NCBI GenBank assembly: GCA_964016885.1
Contig: OZ024742.1
Coordinates: forward strand, 20,646,001 to 20,710,000
DNA length: 64,000 nucleotides
Reading direction: 5' to 3'
Source: Eledone cirrhosa
Taxonomy: Eukaryota
The notes under the pieces are model-generated. The model saw only the letters and a program-made list of their open reading frames with translations, ran no database searches and was not told the DNA's origin. The position numbers and the translations under genes were made by a program. The stretch's first letter is position 1; every line of letters begins with the position of its first letter. Below, piece after piece: positions 11,186-60,900 of this stretch.

Positions 11186-11428
11186 TGAAATTTTAGTTGT
11201 AAATTAATTTTATAATTTTCTTATTTTACGTCTCTCATATTATTTTTCTGCATCCCCATGCATTGAACTACAAAGTTACTAAGAGAAAACCTATATATTT
11301 GCTAGCATAAGTATGCATCTGTGTATATATGTTACTAGATATACTAATTCTTTATATATATATATACAAAGAATGAAAGAGAGAAGGAACAAAAGAAGGT
11401 GATAGAGATTGTGAACAGGCATGAGAGG

Positions 11429-13473: not shown

Positions 13474-16400
13474 CTACAGGATGGTATACAGAGAAGGCCC
13501 ATTTACACGAGCCATTCTCGCCACTATCACCCACCTTTCATAAAACTGCCTGTGGCCAAGCACCTCTCTCTCCATTCTTATCCTTCTTCCGAAGTGATAT
13601 CGGAAGAAGTAGACCAGACTATGGCCAGAGAGGAAGTTGCCTGACCTCAGACCTTTCAATCGTGTCCACCAAACAACCTCTTTCAACATGGCTATTACGC
13701 ACAGAAAAACCGCCTTTGCTTCCTTTGTGAAGAGGGGAGGCGGTTTGATTGTCATCACGGACTCGGCTGTCAATTTAATCGGCGCCACCCGCGACAGCAG
13801 TTGTTCGGCGTAGCCCCACAGATCAGCCACGCCCGGACATTGCACCAATGCGTGCGCCACGGTTTCTTCGTGACGCACGCATCTAGGGCAAATCTTTTTT
13901 GAGGGATCCCTGCCCGGGCGCCCGTGTCTGTAGAGCCTCTCTCGAACGGGTAGAGCCCCCCGGTAGCACTGCCAGGCCAGTGACTTCTGGAAGTTGTCCA
14001 TTGGTCCTGGGCCGAAAGTCCTACCGAACAGGCTGGCCAGTTCGTCTTCTTCCATGTCCAGCGACTCTCCAAGGGTGTCATCGCCCCTGCTAGCCACCAG
14101 CCCTCTATAGAATGATGAGGTGGATTCTCCACCGATGGCCCGGCCCGCTTGCCAGAGAGCCCTGAGCGCCTGAGCACACTCAGTGTGCCAGTCTCCCAGT
14201 TTTCCGGATCTTTGCTTGACCCAGGACTGTAGCTCGGTGAGTGAGACGAGTCTCGGAAAGGCTCGTTTCACGAACGGAGCCCACACCGGTTGACCAGTGA
14301 GGAATACCTGTAGGTGCCGTAGCCTTAATGCGTGCCTACGCATCATCAACCACGGCATCCCCAGCCCTCCTTTCGAAGGTTGTTGGCAGCAGATGGATCT
14401 TCTCACCATAGGAGGACGCTTCTTCCAAAGAAATTGGAAGAGCATGCGTTCCATGGTGGTGAGTGTTTCCTTAGGGCAAGGCACGACAGTCAGGCGGTAG
14501 TAAGTGACGGACGCTATGTAAATGTTCGCCACCTCCGCCCGGCCTTTTAGGGACAGCTTACACTTGGCCCATTTCTGGGTTAGTGCAAACACCTTGTTCG
14601 TAACCTCGTTCCAGTTCTTTTCCACCTGGAGGTCCGGTCCAAACCAGACCCCAAGCAACTTTACCGGGCCCTCCGTCCAGTGTCCGACGACACCATCGGG
14701 AGGCATCGGTCTGCCTCTCCACGTTCCGAGTTGCAGCCCGATGGATTTTTCCCGGTTCAGTTTCGCTCCTGACAACCTTTCGTACTCCTCCAGTAAGGTA
14801 CCGATCGCCTCGATCTCCGAGTCGGTTGATACCATTACTGTTACGTCATCGGCGTAGGCCGACACCGCTTTGCTCAATCCTGGTTCCAGGGGGATACCCT
14901 GCAACAACTCCAACTTCCTCAGTAAAGGCTCGAGAGTCAATACGTACAGAAGGGAGGAGAGAGGGCACCCCTGTCGAATGGATCGTGTGATTTCGAACGG
15001 CTTCGAAAGGTAGCCGTTCACCTTGATCCTAGAACAGATGTGGTTGCTATGTAGGGCAGTGATCCAGCCTCTGAAAACAGGACCGAACCCAGCCGCCGCT
15101 AGCACCGCATCCAGGTAACCATGGTCGACCCTATCGAAGGCCTTAGACTGATCCAAGTTGATCAGGGCCCCACCGAAGCCGGGTTTGTTGCCAACCCTCT
15201 CTATGATGTATCGCATGAGGTGGAGGTTATCGTGAATGGACCTGGATGGGATAGCACATGTCTGCGCATCTCCCACCAGGCCACCCACGACAAGCGCCAA
15301 CCTCTTTGCTAACACCTTGGCCAAAATCTTTAACTCTGTGTTTAGCAGGGTTATGGGCCGAAAATTATTTATACTATCCCCCTTGTTCTCGTCCTTCCTC
15401 ACCAGCGTGACTACGCCCTTGGCTACAGAACAAGGAATTCTCCCGTTCTGCTGCCAATTGCAGTAGACCGCTTCGAGGAGTTCGGAGAAGAAGACCGGCA
15501 TTGCTAAATAAAGTTCGTAAGGTATACCATCGAGACCTGGAGATTTGCGTCTGCTGCATTGGCTCAGCGCATCTCCGATCTCATCAGCCGAGATTGGTCC
15601 CTCGCAGGACTCCGCCTCTTTGTTCGAGAGACGCGGCAGGCCGTCGAGGTATGGACCGAAATTCACGCCCCGGCCCGGACCCTCGCCTCCCCCGAACAAT
15701 CGGGCAAAGTGCTTTTGAAAGGCCTCGCACATCTGCTTAGGCTCCCGGATCACTCGTCCATCTTCGTCTTGCAACGACCGGATGGTGGATCGATTTCCAC
15801 TTTTAGCTTCTGTCACGCGGGCCCATCCAACGGCTTTGGCCCCCTCATTACCTAGAGCACGTATTTTACTTCGAATGACGCAGCCTTCATGCTTTGCATC
15901 GAAAAACTGGTTCAAGGCCGTCCTCGATGCCAGCACTCTGGCCACATCTTCGCTCTTGATTGCCTCTTCTAATTTACCTGTTAATTCTTTCTCGTTTCTA
16001 TTCCTATTGGCAGCTAACATCTTGCTATAGCTTATTGATTCTGTTCTAATCTCTCTTTTGAGAGATGCCCACCATCGGTTGTTGACGATTGCACCCGTCA
16101 ACCTCTCCTTAACTAATCTGCTAATCCGGTTTCTGTAAGTCTCTTTTGCCGGTAAAGACAAATTAAGTTTCCAGTAACCGGGACCCTGTCTATGTGTTTT
16201 CTCGAGATTGACCACGCAGGTCACTAATTTGTGATCCGTGTAGCCAACCGTGCGCATTTCTGGACAGCTTAATATGTCCCTATCCTTACTTCTAACTAAG
16301 AATCTATCTAAGTACGATCTAGATTGACCACTGTGGTTTCTCCAAGTCCAGGTAGGCACAGTTGGAAAATCTAGTCGATATCTATCGACCAAGTTAAAAC

Positions 16401-16911
16401 GGTCGAGTAACCCCTTGAGGCTGTTACACCCCCCTCTATTAGGACATGCTCCTGCATAGTCCCAACGTGCATCTAGGATGTCATTCCAATCCCCCGCTAG
16501 AAGCAGGGAACGCGACGTTCCCAGAAAAGTCTCCAAACGCTGGAAGAAGTCGGGCCGTTCAGCTCCGAAAGGGGAGTAGACGGCGACCAGTCTCAAGGCC
16601 GCACTTTCACTACTGCCAACGTCTAGCACCAACAAACGACCCTCCGGGTCCGAGTGCACAACCTGTACGGCAAGACCCAGGTGTTTTTGCAGCAGCACGA
16701 CAACCCCACCCCCACCTCCAGGTTGACAGAGAGATGCATGCACCTCAAAGTCATCGAAGGTGGGGGCCAGCTGCCGCATGACGCTGATTCGAGTCTCACA
16801 GATAACCATTACATTTATACTACATGACCTGAGGTCATTTAGAAGCTTTGCTTGCTTCCAAGTTGAGCCCAGGCCACGTGCATTCAAACATCCTACTCTT
16901 AACACATCCAT
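13474..16911 (-). CDS. LINE ORF2p: APE endonuclease, reverse transcriptase and C-terminal zinc-finger domain (1145 aa)
   Basis: APE motifs LNARG, ICET, GDWN, YLDRF, TDH; RT motifs KSPGLDG, FRPITLLN, LDQSKAFDRV, RQGCPLS, YADD; C-terminal CPRC...ETVAHALVQC. Confidence 0.96.
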   Translation of the reverse strand: MDVLRVGCLNARGLGSTWKQAKLLNDLRSCSINVMVICETRISVMRQLAPTFDDFEVHASLCQPGGGGGVVVLLQKHLGLAVQVVHSDPEGRLLVLDVGSSESAALRLVAVYSPFGAERPDFFQRLETFLGTSRSLLLAGDWNDILDARWDYAGACPNRGGCNSLKGLLDRFNLVDRYRLDFPTVPTWTWRNHSGQSRSYLDRFLVRSKDRDILSCPEMRTVGYTDHKLVTCVVNLEKTHRQGPGYWKLNLSLPAKETYRNRISRLVKERLTGAIVNNRWWASLKREIRTESISYSKMLAANRNRNEKELTGKLEEAIKSEDVARVLASRTALNQFFDAKHEGCVIRSKIRALGNEGAKAVGWARVTEAKSGNRSTIRSLQDEDGRVIREPKQMCEAFQKHFARLFGGGEGPGRGVNFGPYLDGLPRLSNKEAESCEGPISADEIGDALSQCSRRKSPGLDGIPYELYLAMPVFFSELLEAVYCNWQQNGRIPCSVAKGVVTLVRKDENKGDSINNFRPITLLNTELKILAKVLAKRLALVVGGLVGDAQTCAIPSRSIHDNLHLMRYIIERVGNKPGFGGALINLDQSKAFDRVDHGYLDAVLAAAGFGPVFRGWITALHSNHICSRIKVNGYLSKPFEITRSIRQGCPLSSLLYVLTLEPLLRKLELLQGIPLEPGLSKAVSAYADDVTVMVSTDSEIEAIGTLLEEYERLSGAKLNREKSIGLQLGTWRGRPMPPDGVVGHWTEGPVKLLGVWFGPDLQVEKNWNEVTNKVFALTQKWAKCKLSLKGRAEVANIYIASVTYYRLTVVPCPKETLTTMERMLFQFLWKKRPPMVRRSICCQQPSKGGLGMPWLMMRRHALRLRHLQVFLTGQPVWAPFVKRAFPRLVSLTELQSWVKQRSGKLGDWHTECAQALRALWQAGRAIGGESTSSFYRGLVASRGDDTLGESLDMEEDELASLFGRTFGPGPMDNFQKSLAWQCYRGALPVRERLYRHGRPGRDPSKKICPRCVRHEETVAHALVQCPGVADLWGYAEQLLSRVAPIKLTAESVMTIKPPPLFTKEAKAVFLCVIAMLKEVVWWTRLKGLRSGNFLSGHSLVYFFRYHFGRRIRMEREVLGHRQFYERWVIVARMARVNGPSLYTIL

Positions 16912-16944
16912 GTGGGCGGCAGAGCCAAAGGAGAGTGTAGAGAC

Positions 16945-18633
16945 CTACCTTTCCGCTTCCCGGGGTTCGGGTTGCACGACTTCCATGGGGTCGGGGGTGT
17001 TGGGTGAAGGGGTGTCTTGTGGTGGTGTGGGGTCGTCGGTGTGTGGTGGGGTTGGGGTGTTTGGAGTTGTGTTGGGGAGGGGAAGGGGAGGGGGAAAGCT
17101 TTTTAGTAGGACGCGGTTTATGGGTTTGACAGAGGGTGGTCCTACGTCCTCCTTAAAATCCTTTTTTAGTTTTTGGTAGAGGTTCATTGGGATTTTTATT
17201 AGTTTTAAATGTGGGTGGTTTTCTGATGAAACAAAGTTTACACCTTCGGTTTGTACCGAAGGATTATTGTATATGAGTTCATTTAATTTATTATTGTTTC
17301 TGTTGATGTAAGTATAGTGTAATGTCTTTTTTTCCGATGGTGTGAGTGTTTCGAAGAGGGGAGGGGCAGGTTTGGTTTTGTTTGTTGCTGGAGGGGTGTT
17401 TTCTGTTTTGTTAGATTGTGTTGCGATTTGGGTGGGGGTTGTTTGTCCTTGTGTGTTTTGCACATGTTTTCTTTTTTTCCTTTTAATCTGTCTGAAGGAC
17501 TCCGTTTCTTCCTCCGAATTCGTTGGGTTATCTTCAGTGTTGGAGGGAAGAGGTATGTTTGCTGGTAATGTTTCCGTGTTGGTTTTCTTTGTGGGGGAGA
17601 TGGATGTCACTATGTTAGACTGTGTTGTGTGTTGTGTCTGCGGTGGTTGTGTTGTTTTATTGAGTGAGAGGTTGGGTGGGCCTGTATTTTGTTTTGGGGT
17701 AATGTGTTGTGACTGTTTGTGTTGTGGTGGTGTTGTGGTGTTACTGAGGGACGGGTTGGGTGGGACTGAGTTTTGTTGTTTGTTTATCTGTTGTGGTGGT
17801 GGTGGTGGAGCTGGTGTTGGTAGCAGGGTTTTCTTTTTGTTGAGTTGGGGACAAGCGGCCTTCAGGTGCCCTCTGCCTGCACAGATATGGCAGGACGGCC
17901 TTCTCCCCTCCACGCTAATGTTTATATACCCGTGGTCCTCTAATAGGATTCTGTCGGGTATTTGGGCGATGCGTTCAGGCTTCATTTGTACTACCAGCTC
18001 TATACCTGTTCCACTGAACGCATTGCCTGTGGTTTTCCCAATGGAAATCACGTTGTCATTCACTGGATCGATGAAGCCAGCTATGAGCCAGCAGTAGTCC
18101 ACATCTGGCATCATTGCATCCAGCCATATGCGTTGAGTTTTTTTCCCCATATAAGATGGATAAAAGGTGAAATTTTTCGAACGAATCGGTGACAAAGCAC
18201 ATTTTTTTGCCGCCGATTCGTTCTTCATGATAATTGCTAGGCTTCCATACAGTCTGTCTTTTCTTATGAAAGTTGTTTCATTCAGTACTTCTGCGAGTAC
18301 TGTTTTGATATCTGCTTGAGAAGGCTGTTCAGGTTTTTTTGTACTGTTGTTGATGGTCCGAAACTTGACCGTTCGGCTTTCAATGTCTTTCGTGAATTCT
18401 TGAGGCATTTTTACCAATAAAATACCATTCTCACCTTCACTTATGTATTGTTTTGCGTCCGTGATCCTTCGTACCACATCTGAAATGTTTTCCGCTATAT
18501 AAGTCAAAGATTTCTTTGTTTTCTGTGCAAAAGAAATCTTGTCGTCTGCTTTGTTTTCTGATATTATGTTATTTTCAACTGTTATTTTTTTGTTTGTTGT
18601 GTCTTTGTTTGTGTTATTAGTATTGTCATGCAA
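16945..18633 (-). CDS. LINE ORF1p, gag-like with CCHC zinc knuckle (562 aa)
   Basis: CHICAGRGHLKAAC knuckle, Pro/Thr-rich region and basic KRKKRK; lies immediately upstream of ORF2; homologues at 38580-40466 and 58206-59165. Confidence 0.9.
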   Translation of the reverse strand: MHDNTNNTNKDTTNKKITVENNIISENKADDKISFAQKTKKSLTYIAENISDVVRRITDAKQYISEGENGILLVKMPQEFTKDIESRTVKFRTINNSTKKPEQPSQADIKTVLAEVLNETTFIRKDRLYGSLAIIMKNESAAKKCALSPIRSKNFTFYPSYMGKKTQRIWLDAMMPDVDYCWLIAGFIDPVNDNVISIGKTTGNAFSGTGIELVVQMKPERIAQIPDRILLEDHGYINISVEGRRPSCHICAGRGHLKAACPQLNKKKTLLPTPAPPPPPQQINKQQNSVPPNPSLSNTTTPPQHKQSQHITPKQNTGPPNLSLNKTTQPPQTQHTTQSNIVTSISPTKKTNTETLPANIPLPSNTEDNPTNSEEETESFRQIKRKKRKHVQNTQGQTTPTQIATQSNKTENTPPATNKTKPAPPLFETLTPSEKKTLHYTYINRNNNKLNELIYNNPSVQTEGVNFVSSENHPHLKLIKIPMNLYQKLKKDFKEDVGPPSVKPINRVLLKSFPPPLPLPNTTPNTPTPPHTDDPTPPQDTPSPNTPDPMEVVQPEPREAER

Positions 18634-19148
18634 TTTTTCAAATTTTTTTTTTTCGTTGTTTTCGTCATTTAATTTTTTTTTCCTCCGCAGATTCGTCCGT
18701 TTTTATTTTCATTTTTCCTTCCTTCTCTATGACGTTAGTTGGGAAGGAAGGGAGGACTAAAGCGTGCGAGCTTACAACTCTTACCGCTGTCCCCCCACCA
18801 CTATTTTCGTTCGCTGCGTTTAACATTTCTGTTAGACGATTGAAATTTTTTACACAAAATTTTTTAAAACAGGTTTTTCACCTCTAGGAGGGGTAAAGAT
18901 GAGCTGACCCACCGCCTGACAGTTCAGACGGAGGGTCAAGCTACACAATTGTATCAAAATTAAGTTTGAACTCACAAAATTTCCTCAATAAATTTGAACA
19001 AAACTTCTGTGCGAAGTGAATGACATCCACACTGTAGAACAGACGACAGCTAGATTGACACATATATATAGATAGATGTGTAGTTAGGTATGTATGTATG
19101 TATGTATGTATGTATGTATGTATGTATGTATGTATGTATGTATGTATG

Positions 19149-23081: not shown

Positions 23082-23126
<45 letters not shown>

Positions 23127-23871
23127 GATAATTTAATATATCTACTAACATAAGCGCACAGATGTATGCTATTGCCAGCAAATACACAGGTTATGTCATA
23201 GTACCTAGGTGGTTCAATGCAGGAGAATGCAGAACAATAATATATAAGACGTAAAATAAGAAAATTTCTTAAAAAAAAATTGTTTCTAAAAAATTAACTT
23301 ACTTACTTAAATGTTCACTCCAACTAATTAGTTTCTGCAATGGGATAAAGAGAGTTACGTAATGAACTGTTGAGAATTTCATTGCGTCATCAGGGTGGTC
23401 ATTCTCAGCCGAGTCTCCAGGCGATGCGCGGACACTGGGGACTCATATAAAAATAATAATAATTCGGCAACTGGAACAGCTATCGAGGACTGGATTCCAG
23501 CTACTGAAAATTCTCACTGCCACTGATCATATGGCCGATTCTAAAGAATCAATCACGTGACACAGAGGCTAGTCAGTAGGAATGGGATGGTAAGATGACA
23601 GACGCCTACTAACACCCCCCAAAAAAATTTAGAAGTGGTTTTGGCAGGTTTGCTCGACAAATCAGTGATTTGAAAATAAATATAGATAATGTAATATATC
23701 TACTAACATAAGCGCACAGATGTACGCTAATGCCAGCAAATACACAGGTTATGTCATAGTACCTAGGTGGTTCAATGCAGGAGAGTGCAGAACAATAATA
23801 TATAAGACGTAAAATAAGAAAATTTCTTAAAAAAAAATTTTTTCTACAAAATTAACTTACTTAAATTTTCA

Positions 23872-23951
23872 CTCCAACTAATTAGTTTCTGCAATAGGAT
23901 AAAGACAGTTACGTAATGAACTGTTGAGAATTTCATTGCGTCATCAGGGAG
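23872..23951 (-). ncRNA. Variant type I hammerhead, representative of one per 557-bp monomer
   Basis: Plus strand CTCCAACTAATTAGTTTCTGCAAT...CATTGCGTCATCAGGGAG recurs in the units. Confidence 0.7.
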
Positions 23952-26900
23952 GTCATTCTCAGCCGAGTCTCCAGGCGATGCGCGGACACTGGGGACTCAT
24001 ATAAAAATAATAATAATTCGGCAACTGGAACAGCTATCGAGGACTGGATTCCAGCCACTGAAAATTCTCACTGCCACTGATCATATGGCCGATTCTAAAG
24101 AATCAATCACGTGACACAGAGGCTAGTCAGTAGGAATGGGATGGTAAGATGACAGACGCCTACTAACACCCCCAAAAAAATTTAGAAGTGGTTTTGGCAG
24201 GTTTGCTCGACAAATCAGTGATTTGGAGATAAATATAGATAATTTAATATATCTACTAACATAAGCGCACAGATGTACGCTAATGCCAGCAAATACACAG
24301 GTTATGTCATAGTACCTAGGTGGTTCAATGCAGGAGAATGCAGAACAATAATATATAAGACGTAAAATAAGAAGATTTCTTAAAAAAAATTTTTTCCTAA
24401 AAAATTAACTTACTTACTTAAATTTTCACTCCAACTAATTAGTTTCTGCAATGGGATAAAGAGAGTTACGTAATGAACTGTTGAGAATTTCATTGCGTCA
24501 TCAGGGAGGTCATTCTCAGCCGAGTCTCCAGGCGATGCGCGGACACTGGGGACTCATATAAAAATAGTAATAATTCGGCAACTGGAACAGCTATCGAGGA
24601 CTGAATTCCAGCCACTGAAAATTCTCACTGCCACTGATCATATGGCCGATTCTAAAGAATCAATCACGTGACACAGAGGCTAGTCAGTAGGAATGGGATG
24701 GTAAGATGACAGACGCCTACTAACACCCCCCAAAAAAATTTAGAAGTGGTTTTGGCAGGTTTGCTCGACAAATCAGTGATTTGGAGATAAATATAGATAA
24801 TTTAATATATCTACTAACATAAGCGCACAGATGTACGCTAATGCCAGCAAATACACAGGTTATGTCATAGTACCTAGGTGGTTCAATGCAGGAGAGTGCA
24901 GAACAATAATATATAAGACGTAAAATAAGAAAATTTCTTAAAAAAAAATTTTTTCTACAAAATTAACTTACTTAAATTTTCACTCCAACTAATTAGTTTC
25001 TGCAATAGGATAAAGACAGTTACGTAATGAACTGTTGAGAATTTCATTGCGTCATCAGGGAGGTCATTCTCAGCCGAGTCTCCAGGCGATGCGCGGACAC
25101 TGGGGACTCATATAAAAATAATAATAATTCGGCAACTGGAACAGCTATCGAGGACTGGATTCCAGCCACTGAAAATTCTCACTGCCACTGATCATATGGC
25201 CGATTCTAAAGAATCAATCACGTGACACAGAGGCTAGTCAGTAGGAATGGGATGGTAAGATGACAGACGCCTACTAACACCCCCAAAAAAAATTAGAAGT
25301 GGTTTTGGCAGGTTTGCTCGACAAATCAGTGATTTGGAGATAAATATAGATAATTTAATATATCTACTAACATAAGCGCACAGATGTACGCTAATGCCAG
25401 CAAATACACAGGTTATGTCATAGTACCTAGGTGGTTCAATGTAGGAGAATGCAGAACAATAATATATAAGACGTAAAATAAGAAGATTTCTTAAAAAAAA
25501 TTTTTTTCTAAAAAATTAACTTACTTACTTAAATTTTCACTCCAACTAATTAGTTTCTGCAATGGGATAAAGAGAGTTACGTAATGAACTGTTGAGAATT
25601 TCATTGCGTCATCAGGGAGGTCATTCTCAGCCGAGTCTCCAGGCGATGCGCGGACACTGGGGACTCATATAAAAATAGTAATAATTCGGCAACTGGAACA
25701 GCTATCGAGGACTGAATTCCAGCCACTGAAAATTCTCACTGCCACTGATCATATGGCCGATTCTAAAGAATCAATCACGTGACACAGAGGCTAGTCAGTA
25801 GTAATGAGATGGTAAGATGACAGACGCCTACTAACACCCCCCAAAAAAATTTAGAAGTGGTTTTGGCAGGTTTGCTCGACAAATCAGTGATTTGGAGATA
25901 AATATAGATAATTTAATATATCTACTAACATAAGCGCACAGATGTACGCTAATGCCAGCAAATACACAGGTTATTTCATAGTACCTAGGTGGTTCAATGC
26001 AGGAGAATGCAGAACAATAATATATAAGACGTAAAATAATAAAATGTCTTAAAAAAAATTTTTTTCTAAAAAATTAACTTACTTACTTAAATTTTCACTC
26101 CAACTAATTAGTTTCTGCAATGGGATAAAGAGAGTTACGTAATGAACTGTTGAGAATTTCATTGCGTCATCAGGGAGGTCATTCTCAGCCGAGTCTCCAG
26201 GCGATGCGCGGACACTGGGGACTCATATAAAAATAATAATAATTCGGCAACTGGAACAGCTATCGAGGACTGGATTCCAGCCACTGAAAATTCTCACTGC
26301 CACTGATCATATGGCCGATTCTAAAGAATCAATCACGTGACACAGAGGCTAGTCAGTAGGAATGGGATGGTAAGATGACAGACGCCTACTAACACCCCCA
26401 AAAAAATTTAGAAGTGGTTTTGGCAGGTTTGCTCGACAAATCAGTGATTTGGAGATAAATATAGATAATTTAATATATCTACTAACATAAGCGCACAGAT
26501 GTACGCTAATGCCAGCAAATACACAGGTTATGTCATAGTACCTAGGTGGTTCAATGCAGGAGAATGCAGAACAATAATATATAAGACGTAAAATAAGAAG
26601 ATTTCTTAAAAAAAATTTTTTCCTAAAAAATTAACTTACTTACTTAAATTTTCACTCCAACTAATTAGTTTCTGCAATGGGATAAAGAGAGTTACGTAAT
26701 GAACTGTTGAGAATTTCATTGCGTCATCAGGGAGGTCATTCTCAGCCGAGTCTCCAGGCGATGCGCGGACACTGGGGACTCATATAAAAATAGTAATAAT
26801 TCGGCAACTGGAACAGCTATCGAGGACTGAATTCCAGCCACTGAAAATTCTCACTGCCACTGATCATATGGCCGATTCTAAAGAATCAATCACGTGACAC

Positions 26901-29900
26901 AGAGGCTAGTCAGTAGGAATGGGATGGTAAGATGACAGACGCCTACTAACACCCCCCAAAAAAATTTAGAAGTGGTTTTGGCAGGTTTGCTCGACAAATC
27001 AGTGATTTGGAGATAAATATAGATAATTTAATATATCTACTAACATAAGCGCACAGATGTACGCTAATGCCAGCAAATACACAGGTTATGTCATAGTACC
27101 TAGGTGGTTCAATGCAGGAGAGTGCAGAACAATAATATATAAGACGTAAAATAAGAAAATTTCTTAAAAAAAAATTTTTTCTACAAAATTAACTTACTTA
27201 AATTTTCACTCCAACTAATTAGTTTCTGCAATAGGATAAAGACAGTTACGTAATGAACTGTTGAGAATTTCATTGCGTCATCAGGGAGGTCATTCTCAGC
27301 CGAGTCTCCAGGCGATGCGCGGACACTGGGGACTCATATAAAAATAATAATAATTCGGCAACTGGAACAGCTATCGAGGACTGGATTCCAGCCACTGAAA
27401 ATTCTCACTGCCACTGATCATATGGCCGATTCTAAAGAATCAATCACGTGACACAGAGGCTAGTCAGTAGGAATGGGATGGTAAGATGACAGACGCCTAC
27501 TAACACCCCCAAAAAAAATTAGAAGTGGTTTTGGCAGGTTTGCTCGACAAATCAGTGATTTGGAGATAAATATAGATAATTTAATATATCTACTAACATA
27601 AGCGCACAGATGTACGCTAATGCCAGCAAATACACAGGTTATGTCATAGTACCTAGGTGGTTCAATGTAGGAGAATGCAGAACAATAATATATAAGACGT
27701 AAAATAAGAAGATTTCTTAAAAAAAATTTTTTTCTAAAAAATTAACTTACTTACTTAAATTTTCACTCCAACTAATTAGTTTCTGCAATGGGATAAAGAG
27801 AGTTACGTAATGAACTGTTGAGAATTTCATTGCGTCATCAGGGAGGTCATTCTCAGCCGAGTCTCCAGGCGATGCGCGGACACTGGGGACTCATATAAAA
27901 ATAGTAATAATTCGGCAACTGGAACAGCTATCGAGGACTGAATTCCAGCCACTGAAAATTCTCACTGCCACTGATCATATGGCCGATTCTAAAGAATCAA
28001 TCACGTGACACAGAGGCTAGTCAGTAGTAATGAGATGGTAAGATGACAGACGCCTACTAACACCCCCCAAAAAAATTTAGAAGTGGTTTTGGCAGGTTTG
28101 CTCGACAAATCAGTGATTTGGAGATAAATATAGATAATTTAATATATCTACTAACATAAGCGCACAGATGTACGCTAATGCCAGCAAATACACAGGTTAT
28201 TTCATAGTACCTAGGTGGTTCAATGCAGGAGAATGCAGAACAATAATATATAAGACGTAAAATAATAAAATGTCTTAAAAAAAATTTTTTTCTAAAAAAT
28301 TAACTTACTTACTTAAATTTTCACTCCAACTAATTAGTTTCTGCAATGGGATAAAGAGAGTTACGTAATGAACTGTTGAGAATTTCATTGCGTCATCAGG
28401 GAGGTCATTCTCAGCCGAGTCTCCAGGCGATGCGCGGACACTGGGGACTCATATAAAAATAATAATAATTCGGCAACTGGAACAGCTATCGAGGACTGGA
28501 TTCCAGCCACTGAAAATTCTCACTGCCACTGATCATATGGCCGATTCTAAAGAATCAATCACGTGACACAGAGGCTAGTCAGTAGGAATGGGATGGTAAG
28601 ATGACAGACGCCTACTAACACCCCCAAAAAAATTTAGAAGTGGTTTTGGCAGGTTTGCTCGACAAATCAGTGATTTGGAGATAAATATAGATAATTTAAT
28701 ATATCTACTAACATAAGCGCACAGATGTACGCTAATGCCAGCAAATACACAGGTTATGTCATAGTACCTAGGTGGTTCAATGCAGGAGAATGCAGAACAA
28801 TAATATATAAGACGTAAAATAAGAAGATTTCTTAAAAAAAATTTTTTCCTAAAAAATTAACTTACTTACTTAAATTTTCACTCCAACTAATTAGTTTCTG
28901 CAATGGGATAAAGAGAGTTACGTAATGAACTGTTGAGAATTTCATTGCGTCATCAGGGAGGTCATTCTCAGCCGAGTCTCCAGGCGATGCGCGGACACTG
29001 GGGACTCATATAAAAATAGTAATAATTCGGCAACTGGAACAGCTATCGAGGACTGAATTCCAGCCACTGAAAATTCTCACTGCCACTGATCATATGGCCG
29101 ATTCTAAAGAATCAATCACGTGACACAGAGGCTAGTCAGTAGGAATGGGATGGTAAGATGACAGACGCCTACTAACACCCCCCAAAAAAATTTAGAAGTG
29201 GTTTTGGCAGGTTTGCTCGACAAATCAGTGATTTGGAGATAAATATAGATAATTTAATATATCTACTAACATAAGCGCACAGATGTACGCTAATGCCAGC
29301 AAATACACAGGTTATGTCATAGTACCTAGGTGGTTCAATGCAGGAGAGTGCAGAACAATAATATATAAGACGTAAAATAAGAAAATTTCTTAAAAAAAAA
29401 TTTTTTCTACAAAATTAACTTACTTAAATTTTCACTCCAACTAATTAGTTTCTGCAATAGGATAAAGACAGTTACGTAATGAACTGTTGAGAATTTCATT
29501 GCGTCATCAGGGAGGTCATTCTCAGCCGAGTCTCCAGGCGATGCGCGGACACTGGGGACTCATATAAAAATAATAATAATTCGGCAACTGGAACAGCTAT
29601 CGAGGACTGGATTCCAGCCACTGAAAATTCTCACTGCCACTGATCATATGGCCGATTCTAAAGAATCAATCACGTGACACAGAGGCTAGTCAGTAGGAAT
29701 GGGATGGTAAGATGACAGACGCCTACTAACACCCCCAAAAAAATTTAGAAGTGGTTTTGGCAGGTTTGCTCGACAAATCAGTGATTTGGAGATAAATATA
29801 GATAATTTAATATATCTACTAACATAAGCGCACAGATGTACGCTAATGCCAGCAAATACACAGGTTATGTCATAGTACCTAGGTGGTTCAATGTAGGAGA

Positions 29901-32900
29901 ATGCAGAACAATAATATATAAGACGTAAAATAAGAAGATTTCTTAAAAAAAATTTTTTTCTAAAAAATTAACTTACTTACTTAAATTTTCACTCCAACTA
30001 ATTAGTTTCTGCAATGGGATAAAGAGAGTTACGTAATGAACTGTTGAGAATTTCATTGCGTCATCAGGGAGGTCATTCTCAGCCGAGTCTTCAGGCGATG
30101 CGCGGACACTGGGGACTCATATAAAAATAGTAATAATTCGGCAACTGGAACAGCTATCGAGGACTGAATTCCAGCCACTGAAAATTCTCACTGCCACTGA
30201 TCATATGGCCGATTCTAAAGAATCAATCACGTGACACAGAGGCTAGTCAGTAGTAATGGGATGGTAAGATGACAGACGCCTACTAACACCCCCCAAAAAA
30301 ATTTAGAAGTGGTTTTGGCAGGTTTGCTCGACAAATCAGTGATTTGGAGATAAATATAGATAATTTAATATATCTACTAACATAAGCGCACAGATGTACG
30401 CTAATGCCAGCAAATACACAGGTTATTTCATAGTACCTAGGTGGTTCAATGCAGGAGAATGCAGAACAATAATATATAAGACGTAAAATAATAAAATGTC
30501 TTAAAAAAAATTTTTTTCTAAAAAATTAACTTACTTACTTAAATTTTCACTCCAACTAATTAGTTTCTGCAATGGGATAAAGAGAGTTACGTAATGAACT
30601 GTTGAGAATTTCATTGCGTCATCAGGGAGGTCATTCTCAGCCGAGTCTCCAGGCGATGCGCGGACACTGGGGACTCATATAAAAATAATAATAATTCGGC
30701 AACTGGAACAGCTATCGAGGACTGGATTCCAGCCACTGAAAATTCTCACTGCCACTGATCATATGGCCGATTCTAAAGAATCAATCACGTGACACAGAGG
30801 CTAGTCAGTAGGAATGGGATGGTAAGATGACAGACGCCTACTAACACCCCCCAAAAAAATTTAGAAGTGGTTTTGGCAGGTTTGCTCGACAAATCAGTGA
30901 TTTGGAGATAAATATAGATAATTTAATATATCTACTAACATAAGCGCACAGATGTACGCTAATGCCAGCAAATACACAGGCTATGTCATAGTACCTAGGT
31001 GGTTCAATGCAGGAGAGTGCAGAACAATAATATATAAGACGTAAAATAAGAAAATTTCTTAAAAAAAATTTTTTTCTACAAAATTAACTTACTTACTTAA
31101 ATTTTCACTCCAACTAATTAGTTTCTGCAATAGGATAAAGACAGTTACGTAATGAACTGTTGAGAATTTCATTGCGTCATCAGGGAGGTCATTCTCAGCC
31201 GAGTCTCCAGGCGATGCGCGGACACTGGGACTCATATAAAAATAATAATAATTCGGCAACTGGAACAGCTATCGAGGACTGAATTCCAGCCACTGAAAAT
31301 TCTCACTGCCACTGATCATATGGCCGATTCTAAAGAATCAATCACGTGACACAGAGGCTAGTCAGTAGGAATGGGATGGTAAGATGACAGACGCCTACTA
31401 ACACCCCCGAAAAAAATCTAGAAGTGGTTTTGGCAGGTTTGCTCGACAAATCAGTAATTTGGAGATAAATATAGATAATTTAATATATCTACTAACATAA
31501 GCGCACAGATGTACGCTAATGCCAGCAAATACACAGGTTATGTCATAGTACCTAGGTGGTTCAATGCAGGAGAATGCAGAACAATAATATATAAGACGTA
31601 AAATAAGAAGATTTCTTAAAAAAAATTTTTTTCTAAAAAATTAACTCACTTACTTAATTTTTCACTCCAACTAATTAGTTTCTGCAATGGGATAAAGAGA
31701 GTTACGTAATGAACTGTTGAGAATTTCATAGCGTCATCAGGGAGGTCATTCTCAGCCGAGTCTCCAGGCGATGCGCGGACACTGGGGACTCATATAAAAA
31801 TAATAATAATTCGGCAACTGGAACAGCTATCGAGGACTGAATTCCAGCCACTGAAAATTCTCACTGCCACTGATCATATGGCCGATTCTAAAGAATCAAT
31901 CACGTGACACAGAGGCTAGTCAGTAGGAATGGGATGGTAAGATGACAGACGCCTACTAACACCCCCCAAAAAAATTTAGAAGTGGTTTTGGCAGGTTTGC
32001 TCGACAAATCAGTGATTTGGAGATAAATATAGATAATTTAATATATCTACTAACATAAGCGCACCGATGTACGCTAATGCCAGCAAATACACAGGTTCTG
32101 TCATAGTACCTAGGTGGTTCAATGCAGGAGAATACAGAACAATAATATATAAGACGTAAAATAAGAAAATGTCTTAAAAAAAATTTTTTTCTAAAAAATT
32201 AACTTACTTACTTAAATTTTCACTCCAACTAATTAGTTTCTGCAATGGGATAAAGAGAGTTACGTAATGAACTGTTGAGAATTTCATTGCGTCATCAGGG
32301 AGGTCATTCTCAGCCGAGTCTCCAGGCGATGCGCGGACACTGGGGACTCATATAAAAATAATAATAATTCGGCAACTGGAACAGCTATCGAGTACTGGAT
32401 TCCAGCCACTGAAAATTCTCACTGCCACTGATCATATGGCCGATTCTAAAGAATCAATCACGTGACACAGAGGCTAGTCAGTAGGAATGGGATGGTAAGA
32501 TGACAGACGCCTACTAACACCCCCCCAACAAAATTTAGAAGTGGTTTTGGCAGGTTTGCTCGACAAATCAGTGATTTGGAGATAAATATAGATAATTTAA
32601 TATATCTACTAACATAAGCGCACAGATGTATGCCAGCAAATACACAGGTTATGTCATAGTACCTAGGTGGTTCAATGCAGGAGAGTGCAGAACAATAATA
32701 TATAAGACGTAAAATAAGAAAATTTCTTAAAAAAAATTTTTTTCTAAAAAATTAACTTACTTACTTAAATTTTCACTCCAACTAATTAGTTTCTGCAATG
32801 GGATAAAGAGAGTTACGTAATGAACTGTTGAGAATTTCATTGCGTCATCAGGGAGATCATTCTCAGCCGAGTCTCCAGGCGATGCGCGGACACTGGGGAC

Positions 32901-33884
32901 TCATATAAAAATAATAATAATTCGGCAACTGGAACAGCTATCGAGAACTGGATTCCAGCCACTGAAAATTTTCACTGCCACTGATCATATGGCCGATTCT
33001 AAAGAATCAATCACGTGACACAGAGGCTAGTCAGTAGGAATGGGATGGTAAGATGACAGACGCCTACTAACACCCCCCAAAAAAATCTAGAAGTGGTTTT
33101 GGCAGGTTTGCTCGACAAATCAGTGATTTGGAGATAAATATAGATAATTTAATATATCTACTAACATAAGCGCACAGATGTACGCTAATGCCAGCAAATA
33201 CACAGGTTATGTCATAGTACCTAGGTGGTTCAATGCAGGAGAATGCAGAACAATAATATATAAGACGTAAAATAAGAAAATGTCTTAAAAAAAAATTTTT
33301 TCTAAAAAATTAACTTACTTACTTAAATTTTCACTCCAACTAATTAGTTTCTGCAATGGGATAAAGAGAGTTACGTAATGAACTGTTGAGAATTTCATTG
33401 CGTCATCAGGGAGGTCATTCTCAGCCGAGTCTCCAGGCGATGCGCGGACACTGGGGACTCATATAAAAATAATAATAATTCGGCAACTGGAACAGCTATC
33501 GAGGACTGGATTCCAGCCACTGAAAATTCTCACTGCCACTGATCATATGGCCGATTCAATCACGTGACACAGAGGTTAGTCAGTAGGAATGGGATGGTAA
33601 GATGACAGACGCCTACTAACACCCCCAAAAAATATTTAGAAGTGGTTTTGGCAGGTTTGCTCGACAAATCAGTGATTTGGAGATAAATATAGATAATTTA
33701 ATATATCTACTAACATAAGCGCACAGATGTACGCTATTCTTTAGAATCGGCCATATGATCAGTGGCAGTGAGAATTTTCAGTGGCTGGAATCCAGTCCTC
33801 GATAGCTGTTCCAGTTGCCGAATTATTATTTTTATATGAGTCCCCAGTGTCCGCGCATCGCCTGGTGACTCGGCTGAGAATGAC

Positions 33885-33964
33885 CTCCCTGATGACGCAA
33901 TGAAATTCTCAACAGTTCATTACGTAACTCTCTATATCCCATTGCAGAAACTAATTAGTTGGAG
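33885..33964 (+). ncRNA. Variant type I hammerhead in the inverted monomer
   Basis: CTCC-CTGATGA-C-GCAATG-loop-CATTGC-A-GAAA-CTAATTAG-TT-GGAG. Confidence 0.72.
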
Positions 33965-35029
33965 TGAACATTTAAGTAAGTAAGTTAATTTTTTAGAAAA
34001 AAATTTTTTAAAGAAATTTTCTTATTTTACGTCTTATATATTATTGTTCTGCATTCTCCTGCATTGAACCACCTAGGTACTATGACATAACCTGTGTATT
34101 TGCTGGCATTAGCGTACATCTGTGCGCTTATGTTAGTAGATATATTAAATTATCTATATTTATCTCCAAATCACTGATTTGTCGAGCAAACCTGCCAAAA
34201 CCACTTCTAAATTTTTTTGGGGGGTGTTAGTAGGCGTCTGTCATCTTACCATCCCATTCCTACTGACTAGCCTCTGTGTCACGTGATTGATTCTTTAGAA
34301 TCGGCCATAAAATCCTAAATCAAATATCAGAAATTATAAATTAAAACATTAAGAAATTAACAATTAGAAATTAAAGAATTAAAATAAAAAAAATTCTTTT
34401 CAGGTGATAATTCGGATTGAGGTGAGTAAAAATATAGACTGAAGTGAGTAAATAATATGGAGAGAGATGTTTAAGTAATATGTTCTGAGAGGGATTCTAG
34501 TGTCACAGTTACTCTATCCACATATTGAACGACAGTGCCGTACATTATAACTGATTGAAAACTACTTGGCTCTAGGCATTAGTCAATCCATTACACAGTC
34601 ATAATTTCCATCACATGGAACAAAATCAAAGAAAAACAGACATAAAGTACACAAAAGAAAAGAACAGAACCAATAGTGAATAAATGCAAAAACACAGAGA
34701 ACATATATGCAAAATGAGCCATATGATTGTCCATCTGTCCATGTATAGATTGAATTGAGGGGGCTTCTGTTCAAATGCGATTTGGTGCAGGAAAATAGGG
34801 GTTTATCCTATTATTTGTTTCCGCGTATTTATCCTGCCGAAAGTTACTATTATGTCTGTCCAGTGTAAGGGGTTTCCATCCCCATGGTAGAGGGAATTTC
34901 CGGGGTAGCTTATGGTTGGTTCCTCTCTTCTCCACCATATCGGTTACATCGTAAAGCGCTCAACTAATTGAGTGTTTGAATTGAATTGCATCAATGTTTA
35001 CCCTAATATATATGTTTTCTATACCTTTC

Positions 35030-57919: not shown

Positions 57920-60900
57920 CAGTGTTTGTCTGTATTCTTACGTTATTGTGTTAATTAACCCCCTTGCCTGGGTCTTCGGACATTAGGGTTAATTTATTTC
58001 ACCCCTTTTGGGGTGAACATTTTCATTCTAAAAATCTTGTAATTGTCTCTACGCTAGTGGTAATGGAAGCCATTACCACAGGTAACGATGACACGCTCAC
58101 TAAACAAACTGAAGGAGAGCGGGTAGCGGAGGCAACAAGCCTCCCTACTGAAAGAAGATTATTAGAAACATTGAAAAAAATGGAGCCTAACCCTAATGAA
58201 AAAATGTGAAAAAAATTGACTCGGAAAAATTGCCAACATTAATGGATGCCGTTTTGACTTTTCACGGTGCCACGCCCACCAGCAAAGGTGAAAGAGAAGT
58301 AGTAGCTGTGATTACAAGTCTCTCAGATACTGAAAATAAAAGTGAACATTTTGAAAAAATGGAGTCTAACCCCAACTTTGAAAAAAATGGGAACGCATAC
58401 ACCAACATAAATAACACAAACACAACAAAAAATGAAAATTGTAACAACAAAAAACAAGAAAACAACCACATTTCTACAAATGTAAACAAAGAGGGGGCGA
58501 ACAAAATGACGTTCGCTCAAACTACGAAAAAAACCATTGTGTACGAATCTATTGACATTTCGAACATGGCCCAGCAAATGGAAAATGCACGGAAGTATAT
58601 AACTTTGGAAAATGCACGGAAGTATATAACTTTGGAGGACTTTGGAGGTCTATTTTCTTTAAATTCTCCCCCAGAGCTAAAAAAGGAAAATAGCTTAAAA
58701 ACTATTATTTATAGGACAATATCCAACAAAAGCCGTAAGCCAGTACAACTCACACAGACAGAGATTGAACTGGCTTTAAAAGATCATCTGAAAAACATTG
58801 TATTCATTCGGAAGGATAGACTCTACGTTATTTATAATAACAACTTAATAAAAACCGAAGGTTCGAATCTCGCCCAAGCAACGGGGCTTCCCCATCTAAA
58901 AATGATAAAAGCCCCAATGGACATTTACAAAACGTTAAAAGACACTTTTAAAGAGGACGTGCCCCCCCCACACCCCTGCGTCAGACCCATTAACCATATC
59001 CTCCTAAAAAAATCCCCCCCTCCCCAGACACCCACACAATTCCAAACACTACAATCCCACCACACACTGATGCCCCTACACTTCCACAAACCACCACCCC
59101 ACCCAACAACCCACCCCCACCCTCATGGAAATTGTGCGGCCCGGTCCCCGGGACGCAGAGAGGTAAGTGCCTTTTCTCTTTACCACCAACATGGCTGTGT
59201 TGAGAGTAGGTTGTCTAAATGCGCGTGGCCTGGGCTCACCTTGGAAGCAAGCAATGCTTCTAAATGACCTCAGGTCACGATGTATACATGTGATGGTTAT
59301 TTGCGAAGCCCGGATCAGCAGCGAGCGACAGCTGGCCCCTACCTTTGATGACTTTGAGATGCACGCATCTGTCTGTCAGCCCGTAGGTGGGGTGAGGTTG
59401 TCGTTCTGCTGCGAAAACATCTGGGTCTCGCTACACAGACGGTACACTTGGACCCGGAGGGTCGACTAGTGGTTCTGGACCTTCGCAGTGGTGAAGGCGG
59501 AGCTTTTAGGCTGGTCTCCGTCTACGGCCCTTTTGGGTCAACGCGACCGGACTTCTTCCATCGTCTGGAGACTTTTCTAGGGACGTCCCGCTCCTTGCTT
59601 TTAGTGGGGGACAGGAATGGTATCCTAGATGCACGTTGGGACTATGTATCGGCATTTCCTGATAGAAGGGGTTGTAACAGTCTCAAGGGGTTAATCGGCC
59701 GATTCGACCTGGCCGATAGATATCGACTAGATTTTCCGACTGTGCCAACCTGGACTTGGAGAAACCGCAACCGTCAATCTAGATCGTACCTAGATAGGTT
59801 CTTAGTTAGAAATAAGGATAGGGATTTTTTAAATTGCCCAGACGTAACAGAAATCGGGGAGATCGGCACCTTACTGGAGGAATCCGAAACGTTTACAGGG
59901 GCTAAGCTGAACCGGGACAAGTCAGTCGGTTTGCAACTCGGCGAGTGGAGGGGCAAACCGATGGCCTCCAACGGCGTCGTCGGACGTTGGATGGAGGGCC
60001 CGGTGAAGTTGGTCTGGTTCGAGCCAGACCTCCAGGTGGAGAAGAACTGGGGTGAGGTATCGAACAGGGTGTTTGCGCTGACGCAGAAGTGGGCTGAGGG
60101 CAAACTATCCCTGAAAGGTCGGGCGAAGGTGGCGAACACTTATATAGCGTCCGTCATCTATTACCGCCTGACCGTCGTGCCTTGCCCAAGGCAAACGCTC
60201 ACCAAATTGGAGCCAGCACTCTTCCAATTCCTTTGGAAGAAGCGGGCTCCTTTGGTGAGGAGATCCATCTGCTGTCAACACCCTTCGAAATGAGGGCTGC
60301 TGATGCGTAGACACGCATTAAGGCTACGGCACCTCCAGGTATTCCTCACTGGTCAACCGGTGTGGGCCCCGTTGGTGAGGCGAGCCTTTCCGAGACTCGT
60401 CTCGCTCACCGAGCTGCAGTCCTGGGTCAAGCAAAGACCGAGAAAACTGGGCGCCTGGCACACCGAGTGTGCCCAGGCGCTCACGGCTCTCTGGCAGGCG
60501 GACCCAGCTATCGGTGGAGACACCACCTCGTCATTCTATAGAGGGCTGGTGGTTAGTAGGTGTGACGACGCCCTCGGACAAGCCCTAGGCATGGAAGAAG
60601 ACGAACTGGCCAGCCTATTCGGGAGGAATTTGGCTCGGGACCTATTGACAACTTCCAGAGGTCCCTGGCCTGGCAGTGCTACCGAGGGGCGCTGCCCGTT
60701 CGAGAAAAGCTCTACAGACACGGGCGCCCGGGTAGGGACCCCTCGAAAAAAATTTGTCTCAGATGCGTGTGCGACGAGGAAACCGTTGCGCACTCTTTGG
60801 TACACTGCTCGGGCGTTGCCGATCTGTGGGGCTATGTCGAACGACTGCTGTCACGGGTGGAACCAATCCGGTTGACCACTGAGTCTATTGTAACGATAAA

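Follow-up and report, generated by a model that had tools for sequence, protein, structure and literature searches.

A short non-coding repeat of 518–571 nt, each unit of which carries, by its sequence, a type I hammerhead ribozyme motif, was found in the window (the whole stretch of 64,000 nt analysed here) and in thousands of copies in the genome. The repeat is likely a mobile element and likely a retrozyme derived from Penelope elements, and we consider it probable that its hammerhead contains a covarying pseudoknot that braces stems I and II and that the RNA cuts itself after GUU. By sequence and covariation, the core, stems I, IIa and IIb, the pseudoknot pairing and a palindromic stem III could be established for the predicted fold, as could the tandem and inverted arrays and the fixed 3′ ends in (TA)n.

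The motif that the initial annotation had described was recovered at 33885–33964 of the forward strand, letter for letter: CUCC-CUGAUGA-C-GCAAUG, a stretch of 37 nt, then CAUUGC-A-GAAA-CUAAUUAG-UU-GGAG. The parts of this copy were assigned as follows:

33875–33881 (+): UGAGAAU, 5′ strand of the predicted pseudoknot, upstream of stem I; conserved core GAGAA at 33876–33880
33885–33888 (+): CUCC, 5′ strand of stem I, partner 33961–33964; lineage-specific pairing (14/5040)
33889–33895 (+): CUGAUGA, catalytic core C3–A9
33896 (+): C facing A33946, mismatch at 10.1/11.1; alternatively inserted bases 9a and 11a before an invariant G-C
33897–33902 (+): GCAAUG, 5′ strand of stem IIa, partner 33940–33945
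33905–33911 (+): AUUCUCA, 3′ strand of the pseudoknot and 5′ side of the stem II internal loop; core UUCUC at 33906–33910
33912–33931 (+): hairpin ACAGUU/AACUCU of stem IIb (P2b), 33912–33917 with 33926–33931; one C.C mismatch in this copy
33932–33939 (+): 3′ side of the internal loop, family form UUUAUCC; candidate third strand, a putative role
33940–33946 (+): CAUUGC, 3′ strand of stem IIa (33940–33945), and A11.1 (33946)
33947–33960 (+): G12–A14 (GAAA, 33947–33950), stem III palindrome ACUAAUUAGU (33950–33959) and U17 (33960)
between 33960 and 33961 (+): predicted cut after GUU, with a pile-up of 5′ ends nearby
33961–33964 (+): GGAG, 3′ strand of stem I

The core C3–A9, G12–A14, A15.1-U16.1 and an H17 other than G were all present, as in type I hammerheads, H17 being U in the main lineage and A in six distant lineages. 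Three helices surrounded the core with stem I open, and stem III was palindromic in each lineage. Position 10.1/11.1, which adjoins the core, held C.A instead of the Watson-Crick pair, usually G-C, of type I hammerheads, with G-C one step further out. Rfam searches gave no match at the gathering score and no hammerhead at E values up to 10, for which the long stem II is the likely cause. Folding of the region alone was no more stable than that of shuffled sequences (z +1.08). In the cited copy, the hammerhead fold drawn without the pseudoknot reached −6.9 kcal/mol against −14.2 kcal/mol for the lowest-energy fold, and it lay 6–12 kcal/mol above the lowest-energy fold in all four copies tested, which makes the pseudoknot a plausible brace. 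In several lowest-energy folds, CUGAU of the core was paired with AUUAG of stem III, an inactive shape. A motif resembling a 5′ splice site (GUAAGU or GUAGGU; window 33975–33984) was also seen 15–25 nt past the cut in most lineages, being retained in the main, GATC, E, F and I lineages; introns are known in Penelope elements. The stem III palindrome formed no stable hairpin alone and gave −9.0 kcal/mol as a duplex, so dimers are likely; dimeric hammerheads with an unstable stem III have been reviewed (PMC6765202).

CTGATGA occurred 39 times in the window against 7.9 expected, and the full layout was matched by 23 copies, 20 of the 557 family (19 on the − strand and one on the + strand) and three of the 521 family. 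The following copies and arrays were delimited:

23125–33736 (−): array of 19 units (553–558 bp), each with one hammerhead; its 3′ end lies at terminus B and is joined to (TA)n
33737–34309 (+): inverted arm of one unit with a terminal redundancy of 19 nt; contains the cited copy
10040–11350 (no single strand): insertion with two arms, of the 521 subfamily; its hammerheads lie at 10156 (−), 10590 (+) and 11111 (+), and (TA)n runs flank it
47702–47808 (+): copy of the distant lineage H (at 47729) with the same architecture, G-C closure, a GAGU/ACUC pseudoknot and an A-rich 3′ loop strand

Apart from 19 nt that repeat the beginning of the unit, the inverted arm is exactly one unit long, and it ends at neither of the usual 3′ termini nor in (TA)n. 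Two unit types alternate in the array, one with AACUCU and CAUUGC (14 units) and one with AACUGU and UAUUGC (5 units), and the regularity of this alternation suggests amplification of a multi-unit block. The UAUUGC variant of stem II, which had been noted beforehand, was thus present in 5 of the 20 window copies of the 557 family. Other repeats were also observed. Positions 382–2600 hold a 467-bp tandem family (four units on the − strand, one inverted on the + strand) with a small canonical type I hammerhead having a GUUGU/ACAAC stem II, an ACUAGU palindrome and a GUU site. A LINE-type element lies at 13474–18702 (−). Its 1,155-aa frame contains endonuclease, reverse transcriptase and zinc-finger domains, and ahead of this frame is one of 585 aa for which Pfam gave no match; an inverted stretch related to this element lies near 59389–59842.

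The genome (3.0 Gb) was searched with three disjoint exact patterns, which gave 8,667, 1,602 and 456 matches, or 10,725 for the main lineage, with 0 matches for the reversed controls. A single fixed stem position was altered in only 55 copies (0.6%), and most copies are therefore young. A tree of 91 distinct full units, built with the ribozyme columns excluded, was a ladder of subfamilies with identities down to 67%. The last letter of one search pattern favoured truncated copies; the count from that search was set aside, and its loci entered the discovery set only. A looser pattern gave 11,579 genome matches against 30 for the controls, and of the first 100, judged by eye, 71 belonged to lineages of the same architecture. 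These distant lineages (GATC, E, E2, F, I and H) were 60–84% identical to the main unit over short, mostly AT-rich stretches, which is weak but consistent sequence support for homology, and tandem spacing was 478–485 bp in F, I and E. Dispersed tandem non-coding units with one type I hammerhead each, as in non-LTR retrozymes, were thus observed. Two further contig sets contained only already known variants of the repeat; a scan of metagenomes for the motif pattern gave 0 matches, and in a viral scan one of 120 pattern matches, with weak stems, was read as chance.

Published Penelope hammerheads lie in the pLTR of an element that encodes reverse transcriptase and endonuclease (PMC4209133). Among the loci examined, no autonomous coding element joined to the long-armed ribozyme was found. 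The coding element next to the repeat contains a small hammerhead of its own, with (TA)n between the two, and a Pfam search of the neighbouring endonuclease-like frame gave no match. A very young coding element (L087:1-1430 and its G000 matches, 150 scored matches at 99% identity) was also noted. It often occurs as inverted pairs and has open frames that reach 1,217 aa, a zinc-knuckle end, its own small hammerhead and a (TA)n end; we take the end of this element to be GIY-YIG-like from its motif, for which Pfam gave no match. It is a candidate mobiliser. Further hammerheads were seen beside these lineages. Lineages J and K (L484, L487, L502, L550 and others) are abundant, with a long bulged stem II, a non-G-C closure, a non-palindromic stem III (CCUCUGG or CCUUUGG) and no pseudoknot signal, and loci L277 and L357–L362 represent more families with CUGAUGA-C-G...C-A-GAAA, a UACGUA palindrome and long, differing stem II regions.

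Stem II was composed of stem IIa (6 bp), an internal loop and the hairpin IIb, which was often capped by UUCG. The loop II of about 37 nt that had been proposed is therefore not a plain loop: a second hairpin, which also covaries, caps an internal loop. The 5′ side of the internal loop comprised a spacer of 1–4 nt and UUCUC, and the 3′ side UUUA-Y-Y-C. The compensatory changes claimed for stem II were borne out: over 55 internal branches, stem IIa showed five changes per strand, and each of the five fell on the same tree branch as that of its partner (5/5, p 1e-5). In an alignment of 18 subfamily copies, 99.1% of the cells were paired and the covariation score was 0.292, compared with 0.108 for shuffled controls and at most 0.066 for slid partners; in stem IIb, a two-sided change was found in three of the four tested pairs of these copies. 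The 18 rows were taken from 24, the six omitted being mostly misaligned because the 557-type, L061 and distant rows had lost register in the MAFFT alignment; one subfamily copy in the 24-row alignment was swapped for its sister copy, and the 557 family was covered by anchored analyses. The tree test and the 18-copy alignment thus uphold the covariation-backed hammerhead fold. The C.C mismatch in stem IIb was shared by the cited copy and 15 of the 20 window copies, and the genome-wide majority form is intact. The base after UUCUC (window 33911, in the first stem IIb pair) was 13% variable against about 1–5% for its neighbours. It changed from U to C, A or G with an unchanged partner in the UUCG-capped GGAAUG subfamilies (such as L061, L327 and L455) and was invariant in the GUAAGG subfamily (25/25 U). 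A copying error at the helix junction, a modified base or hidden sub-lineages could account for this.

The complementarity between UGAGAAU and AUUCUCA that had been pointed out in both window families was complete in the 557 family and reached only 5 bp (GAGAA/UUCUC) in the 521 family, whose copy at 10590 has UUUUC and GAAG. Because both window families carry GAGAA/UUCUC, they display conservation and not covariation, and they offered no test of the pseudoknot. A single G-C to A-U double change (GAAAA/UUUUC) occurred on one branch of the main lineage (p 0.053), whose pseudoknot strands accumulated 2 changes over their 10 columns where 7.4 were expected (p 0.023), with one G-U subfamily, while the spacers beside them varied in length and sequence. 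This was the only compensatory event within the main lineage, where four of the five pseudoknot pairs never vary. The distant lineages had strands of their own: UGAGAAA/UUUCUCA in GATC, UGAGAAG/CUUCUCA in E, GGAAAA/UUUUCC in I, UGAAAAGA/UCUUUGCA with a fixed A.G in F, and GAGU/ACUC, GAGCU/AGCUC, GAGCG/CGCUC or GAGCA/UGCUC in H.

Across seven lineages, represented by 27 copies hand-picked after viewing and with J and K (14 copies with a different stem II) excluded, the cognate duplex averaged −6.4 kcal/mol and the non-cognate −4.3 kcal/mol in fixed windows. Only 9 of 5040 lineage permutations were as good (6–9 with four other windows; within-lineage p 0.02), and stem I, which served as positive control, gave 14/5040. 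In six distant lineages the upstream strand paired best with its own loop strand. A cognate duplex of −3 kcal/mol or lower was reached by 72 of 78 gathered copies of five of these lineages (GATC 12/13, H 34/36, F 14/16, I 6/7 and E 6/6), with that of F weak (−3.2 kcal/mol) and containing the fixed A.G, and by 4 of 14 copies of J and K (means −1.1 and −1.4 kcal/mol). At least 4 bp linked the arms of stems I and II: 4–7 bp in 26 of the 27 representatives, the remaining one being the G-U form. The pairing thus gains support from the main-lineage double change and from the specific pairing of the six distant lineages, beyond the two families originally compared, and on sequence grounds it is very likely real. 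The upstream strand pairs with the 5′ side of the internal loop, so that the suggested stem I–loop II pseudoknot stands as a pairing and not as a contact with a terminal loop.

The 3′ strand of the internal loop runs parallel to the upstream purine run and is U-rich in six lineages and A-rich in H. Its UUUA had no changes against 2.9 expected (p 0.053) and is otherwise conserved beside a private T>A at 33934 of the cited copy, the whole strand having 5 changes against 5.9. Pairing of this strand with upstream or downstream sequence was considered and gave no cognate signal. Tentatively, and we rate this as somewhat unlikely, the internal loop might be a two-sided clamp that forms a triple helix with the purine run: the 5′ loop strand would pair with the run upstream of stem I and the 3′ strand would lie in its groove, with U.A-U triples in the six lineages whose run is A-rich, for which ENE elements offer a comparison, and A-minor contacts of the A-rich strand in H (run GAGU or GAGC). 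One switch of state between lineages and the conservation of UUUA lend this slight support. If it holds, the motif would be a natural hammerhead docked by a triplex. It would probably cut faster than the Penelope ribozymes known so far, and its roughly 19,000 copies would have been missed by Rfam and by descriptors that limit loop II.

At 10.1/11.1, C.A may represent either a mismatch or two bases inserted before the invariant G-C; the mismatch is favoured because lineage F has G-C at the same register. The C-A pair had been described as fixed between the two window families. In the genome, an A.A subfamily exists inside the main lineage, and C and A had looked invariant at first only because both had been built into the search patterns. 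Among 100 listed main-lineage copies without C, about two thirds were A.A (66, by eye) and 33 were scattered T changes; the A.A copies, which kept GAGAA/UUCUC, came nearly all from one subfamily group. Closures in the pseudoknotted lineages were G-C (F 16/16, I 5/7 and H 13/36), A-U, U-A, A.C, C.A, A.A, U.U and A.G, and a separate family (4 loci) combined A.A with a 3-nt loop II, which leaves no room for a pseudoknot. The position is probably loose across the whole clan, C.A being one tolerated state, and under either reading C.A is not tied to the pseudoknot. Exceptions at 10.1/11.1 have been published, and C.A therefore marks a variant, not an exclusion from type I: a U.U closure of stem II is tolerated in active ribozymes (PMC3088659), U.U lies at the base of helix II in the active ribozyme of the axolotl retrozyme Amex2 (PMC7229834), and an A...A double insertion appears in Fig. 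S3 of PMC4209133, where one of 56 rows, by row order that of the Cotesia element, reads AGAAA. Moreover, an extra nucleotide after A9 is the published consensus of Penelope hammerheads (PMC4209133).

Of 169 mapped 3′ ends, 79 lay 60–99 nt and 75 lay 160–219 nt past the predicted cut. Two fixed 3′-end sequences were used, fused mostly to (TA)n, and many inverted loci had one in each arm. By analogy, this fits a Penelope enzyme extending both target strands, as the enzyme of the anole element does from two internal start sites (PMC11167929). Between −5 and +20 of the predicted cut, the discovery loci had 17 5′ ends where 4.1 were expected, and 100 held-out loci fetched afterwards had 12 where 2.9 were expected, although about 5 of these 29 may be alignment artefacts in AT-rich sequence. 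Copies truncated at the 5′ side past the predicted cut were thus in 4.2-fold excess, a result that replicated, and the other 5′ ends were scattered; truncation was, however, raised across the ribozyme too (3.8–5.1 vs 6.5 per kb). In the mechanism that we propose, the pseudoknot would hold stems I and II side by side, substituting for the usual loop I–loop II contact and stacking on stem IIb, and the RNA would cut itself after GUU. Transcripts of at least two units may fold as dimers through the stem III palindrome, and cleavage, perhaps with circle formation, would yield templates that the Penelope enzyme, starting at two fixed internal sites, would copy into (TA)n. The sign of the pseudoknot effect, activating or inhibiting, we infer by analogy: pseudoknots accelerate cleavage in tested hammerheads, where disruption and rescue were demonstrated (PMC3088659). 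Against the proposed mechanism, Penelope hammerheads are weak in vitro (PMC4209133).

Other explanations were weighed against this reading. The upstream strand might simply extend stem I, the complementarity to the loop being inherited chance. RNAalifold, which cannot draw pseudoknots, predicted such an extension (UGAGA/UUUUA and ACUUA/UAAGU), and the invariance of four of the five pairs in the main lineage would suit it, but no extension pair showed a two-sided change, and three rival pairings with downstream sequence scored 3491, 3164 and 1868 of 5040 against 9/5040 for the pseudoknot. Three other rival pairings likewise had no cognate advantage, and we regard the absence of a pseudoknot as very improbable. 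The initial annotation had proposed that the pseudoknot compensates specifically for the G-C closing pair replaced by C.A. The freedom of 10.1/11.1 in the pseudoknotted lineages is unusual and is what extra tertiary support would allow, and lineage F has G-C at the register where GATC has C.A; against this, the pseudoknot is equally present with G-C closure in F, I and H, mismatched closure also occurs with the 3-nt loop II, and the U.U closures and the A...A insertion cited above are on record elsewhere. In its specific form the proposal thus lacks support, and we judge it improbable.

A further alternative accepts the pseudoknot and assigns it another purpose than faster cutting, with cleavage slow or occasional: the pairing may keep the ribozyme inactive while the RNA is a monomer or circle, shield the RNA or serve as a handle for the Penelope enzyme. 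Inactive shapes among the lowest-energy folds would agree with this, as would the 84 of 316 intervals that run through a cut site, and both U17 (a GUU site) and a mismatched closure are generally expected to slow cleavage. The anole element, moreover, can insert without cleavage (PMC11167929). Yet the position and spacing of the pseudoknot match those of activating stem I–II pseudoknots (PMC3088659 and PMC7936874), every lineage has kept an intact core, and 5′ ends are in excess just past the cut, so that this alternative appears unlikely, if the least so of the three. A pseudoknot that braces the two stems for self-cleavage after GUU is preferred.

Hammerhead pseudoknots and mismatches at 10.1/11.1 are already published, and Lünse et al. 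in 2017 reportedly described stem I–loop II pseudoknots as common. The suggestion of a possibly undescribed hammerhead variant is accordingly narrowed to the internal-loop pseudoknot in a type I hammerhead of the Penelope kind, which was not found in print. The full-text literature yielded no type I hammerhead with such a stem II, and the alignments of Lünse et al. (2017) and the supplements of PMC3088659 may hold earlier examples. Perreault et al. (2011, PMC3088659) reported pseudoknots in about 40% of hammerheads of types I–III, including human C10orf118, formed as here by 4–7 Watson-Crick pairs between the arms of stems I and II; in contrast to the present case, the available text describes no hairpin-capped internal-loop acceptor on stem II, and their filter rejected mispairs at 10.1/11.1.

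The minimal Penelope hammerheads (Cervera and de la Peña 2014, PMC4209133) share with the repeat type I topology, a short helix I and a palindromic helix III. Their consensus is CUGANGA-H-G...C-GAAA, with low activity and no tertiary contact found in the published set; U17 occurs in many rows, and the AGAAA row would have extra nucleotides on both sides, as here. The present motif likewise has an extra nucleotide after A9 followed by G-C, but the published loops II are short, whereas stem II here spans about 50 nt, contains an internal loop, ends in a second hairpin and takes part in a covarying pseudoknot. The closest architecture is that of the ribozymes in PMC7936874 (toad, termite HDV-like RNAs and Drosophila pseudoobscura type III), in which a short stem, an internal loop and a capping hairpin also occur and the 5′ strand of the internal loop also base-pairs with the other arm. 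The arrangement is a mirror image: in those type III ribozymes helix I carries the internal loop, whose partner is terminal loop II, whereas in the present type I motif helix II carries it and its partner is the free strand 5′ of stem I, so that the toad and termite topology, with internal loop and hairpin on helix I, does not apply. The PK hammerhead (Zhan et al. 2024, PMC11300833) also combines the core with a pseudoknot and a third-strand contact, as considered here, but its pseudoknot replaces helix II, whereas helix IIa is present and covarying in the repeat and the pseudoknot is peripheral.

Metazoan non-LTR retrozymes (PMC7229834; bioRxiv 10.64898/2026.07.22.740005), whose derivation from Penelope elements has been proposed, are also tandem non-coding units with one type I hammerhead. 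The units here are longer (478–571 nt vs about 220–390 nt) and differ in their inverted two-armed insertions, two fixed 3′ ends and long pseudoknotted stem II; the terms 'pseudoknot' and 'stem II' are absent from the available text of the preprint (10.64898/2026.07.22.740005). Tandem and inverted insertions with (TA)n targets are described in PMC8557442, whose core searches limit the spacer to 17 nt, and permuted hammerhead forms in PMC10085705. A link to the 'half cores' of Naiad was rejected, as the one consensus compared, Naiad_Ovul, has GAAA before CUGAUGA, a different layout.

Penelope-type hammerheads have been described as minimal, without a recognised stem I–II contact and nearly inactive in vitro. 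Since the motif was missed by Rfam here, similar long-armed hammerheads may be under-counted in animal genomes. The clan offers a tertiary helix backed by covariation together with natural variants at each position that matters, among them six or more closing pairs on one scaffold. It thereby provides a test bed for whether Penelope ribozymes can be fast and whether they still need dimerisation, and a test of how much freedom a tertiary contact gives to the hammerhead pair that ranks second in conservation.
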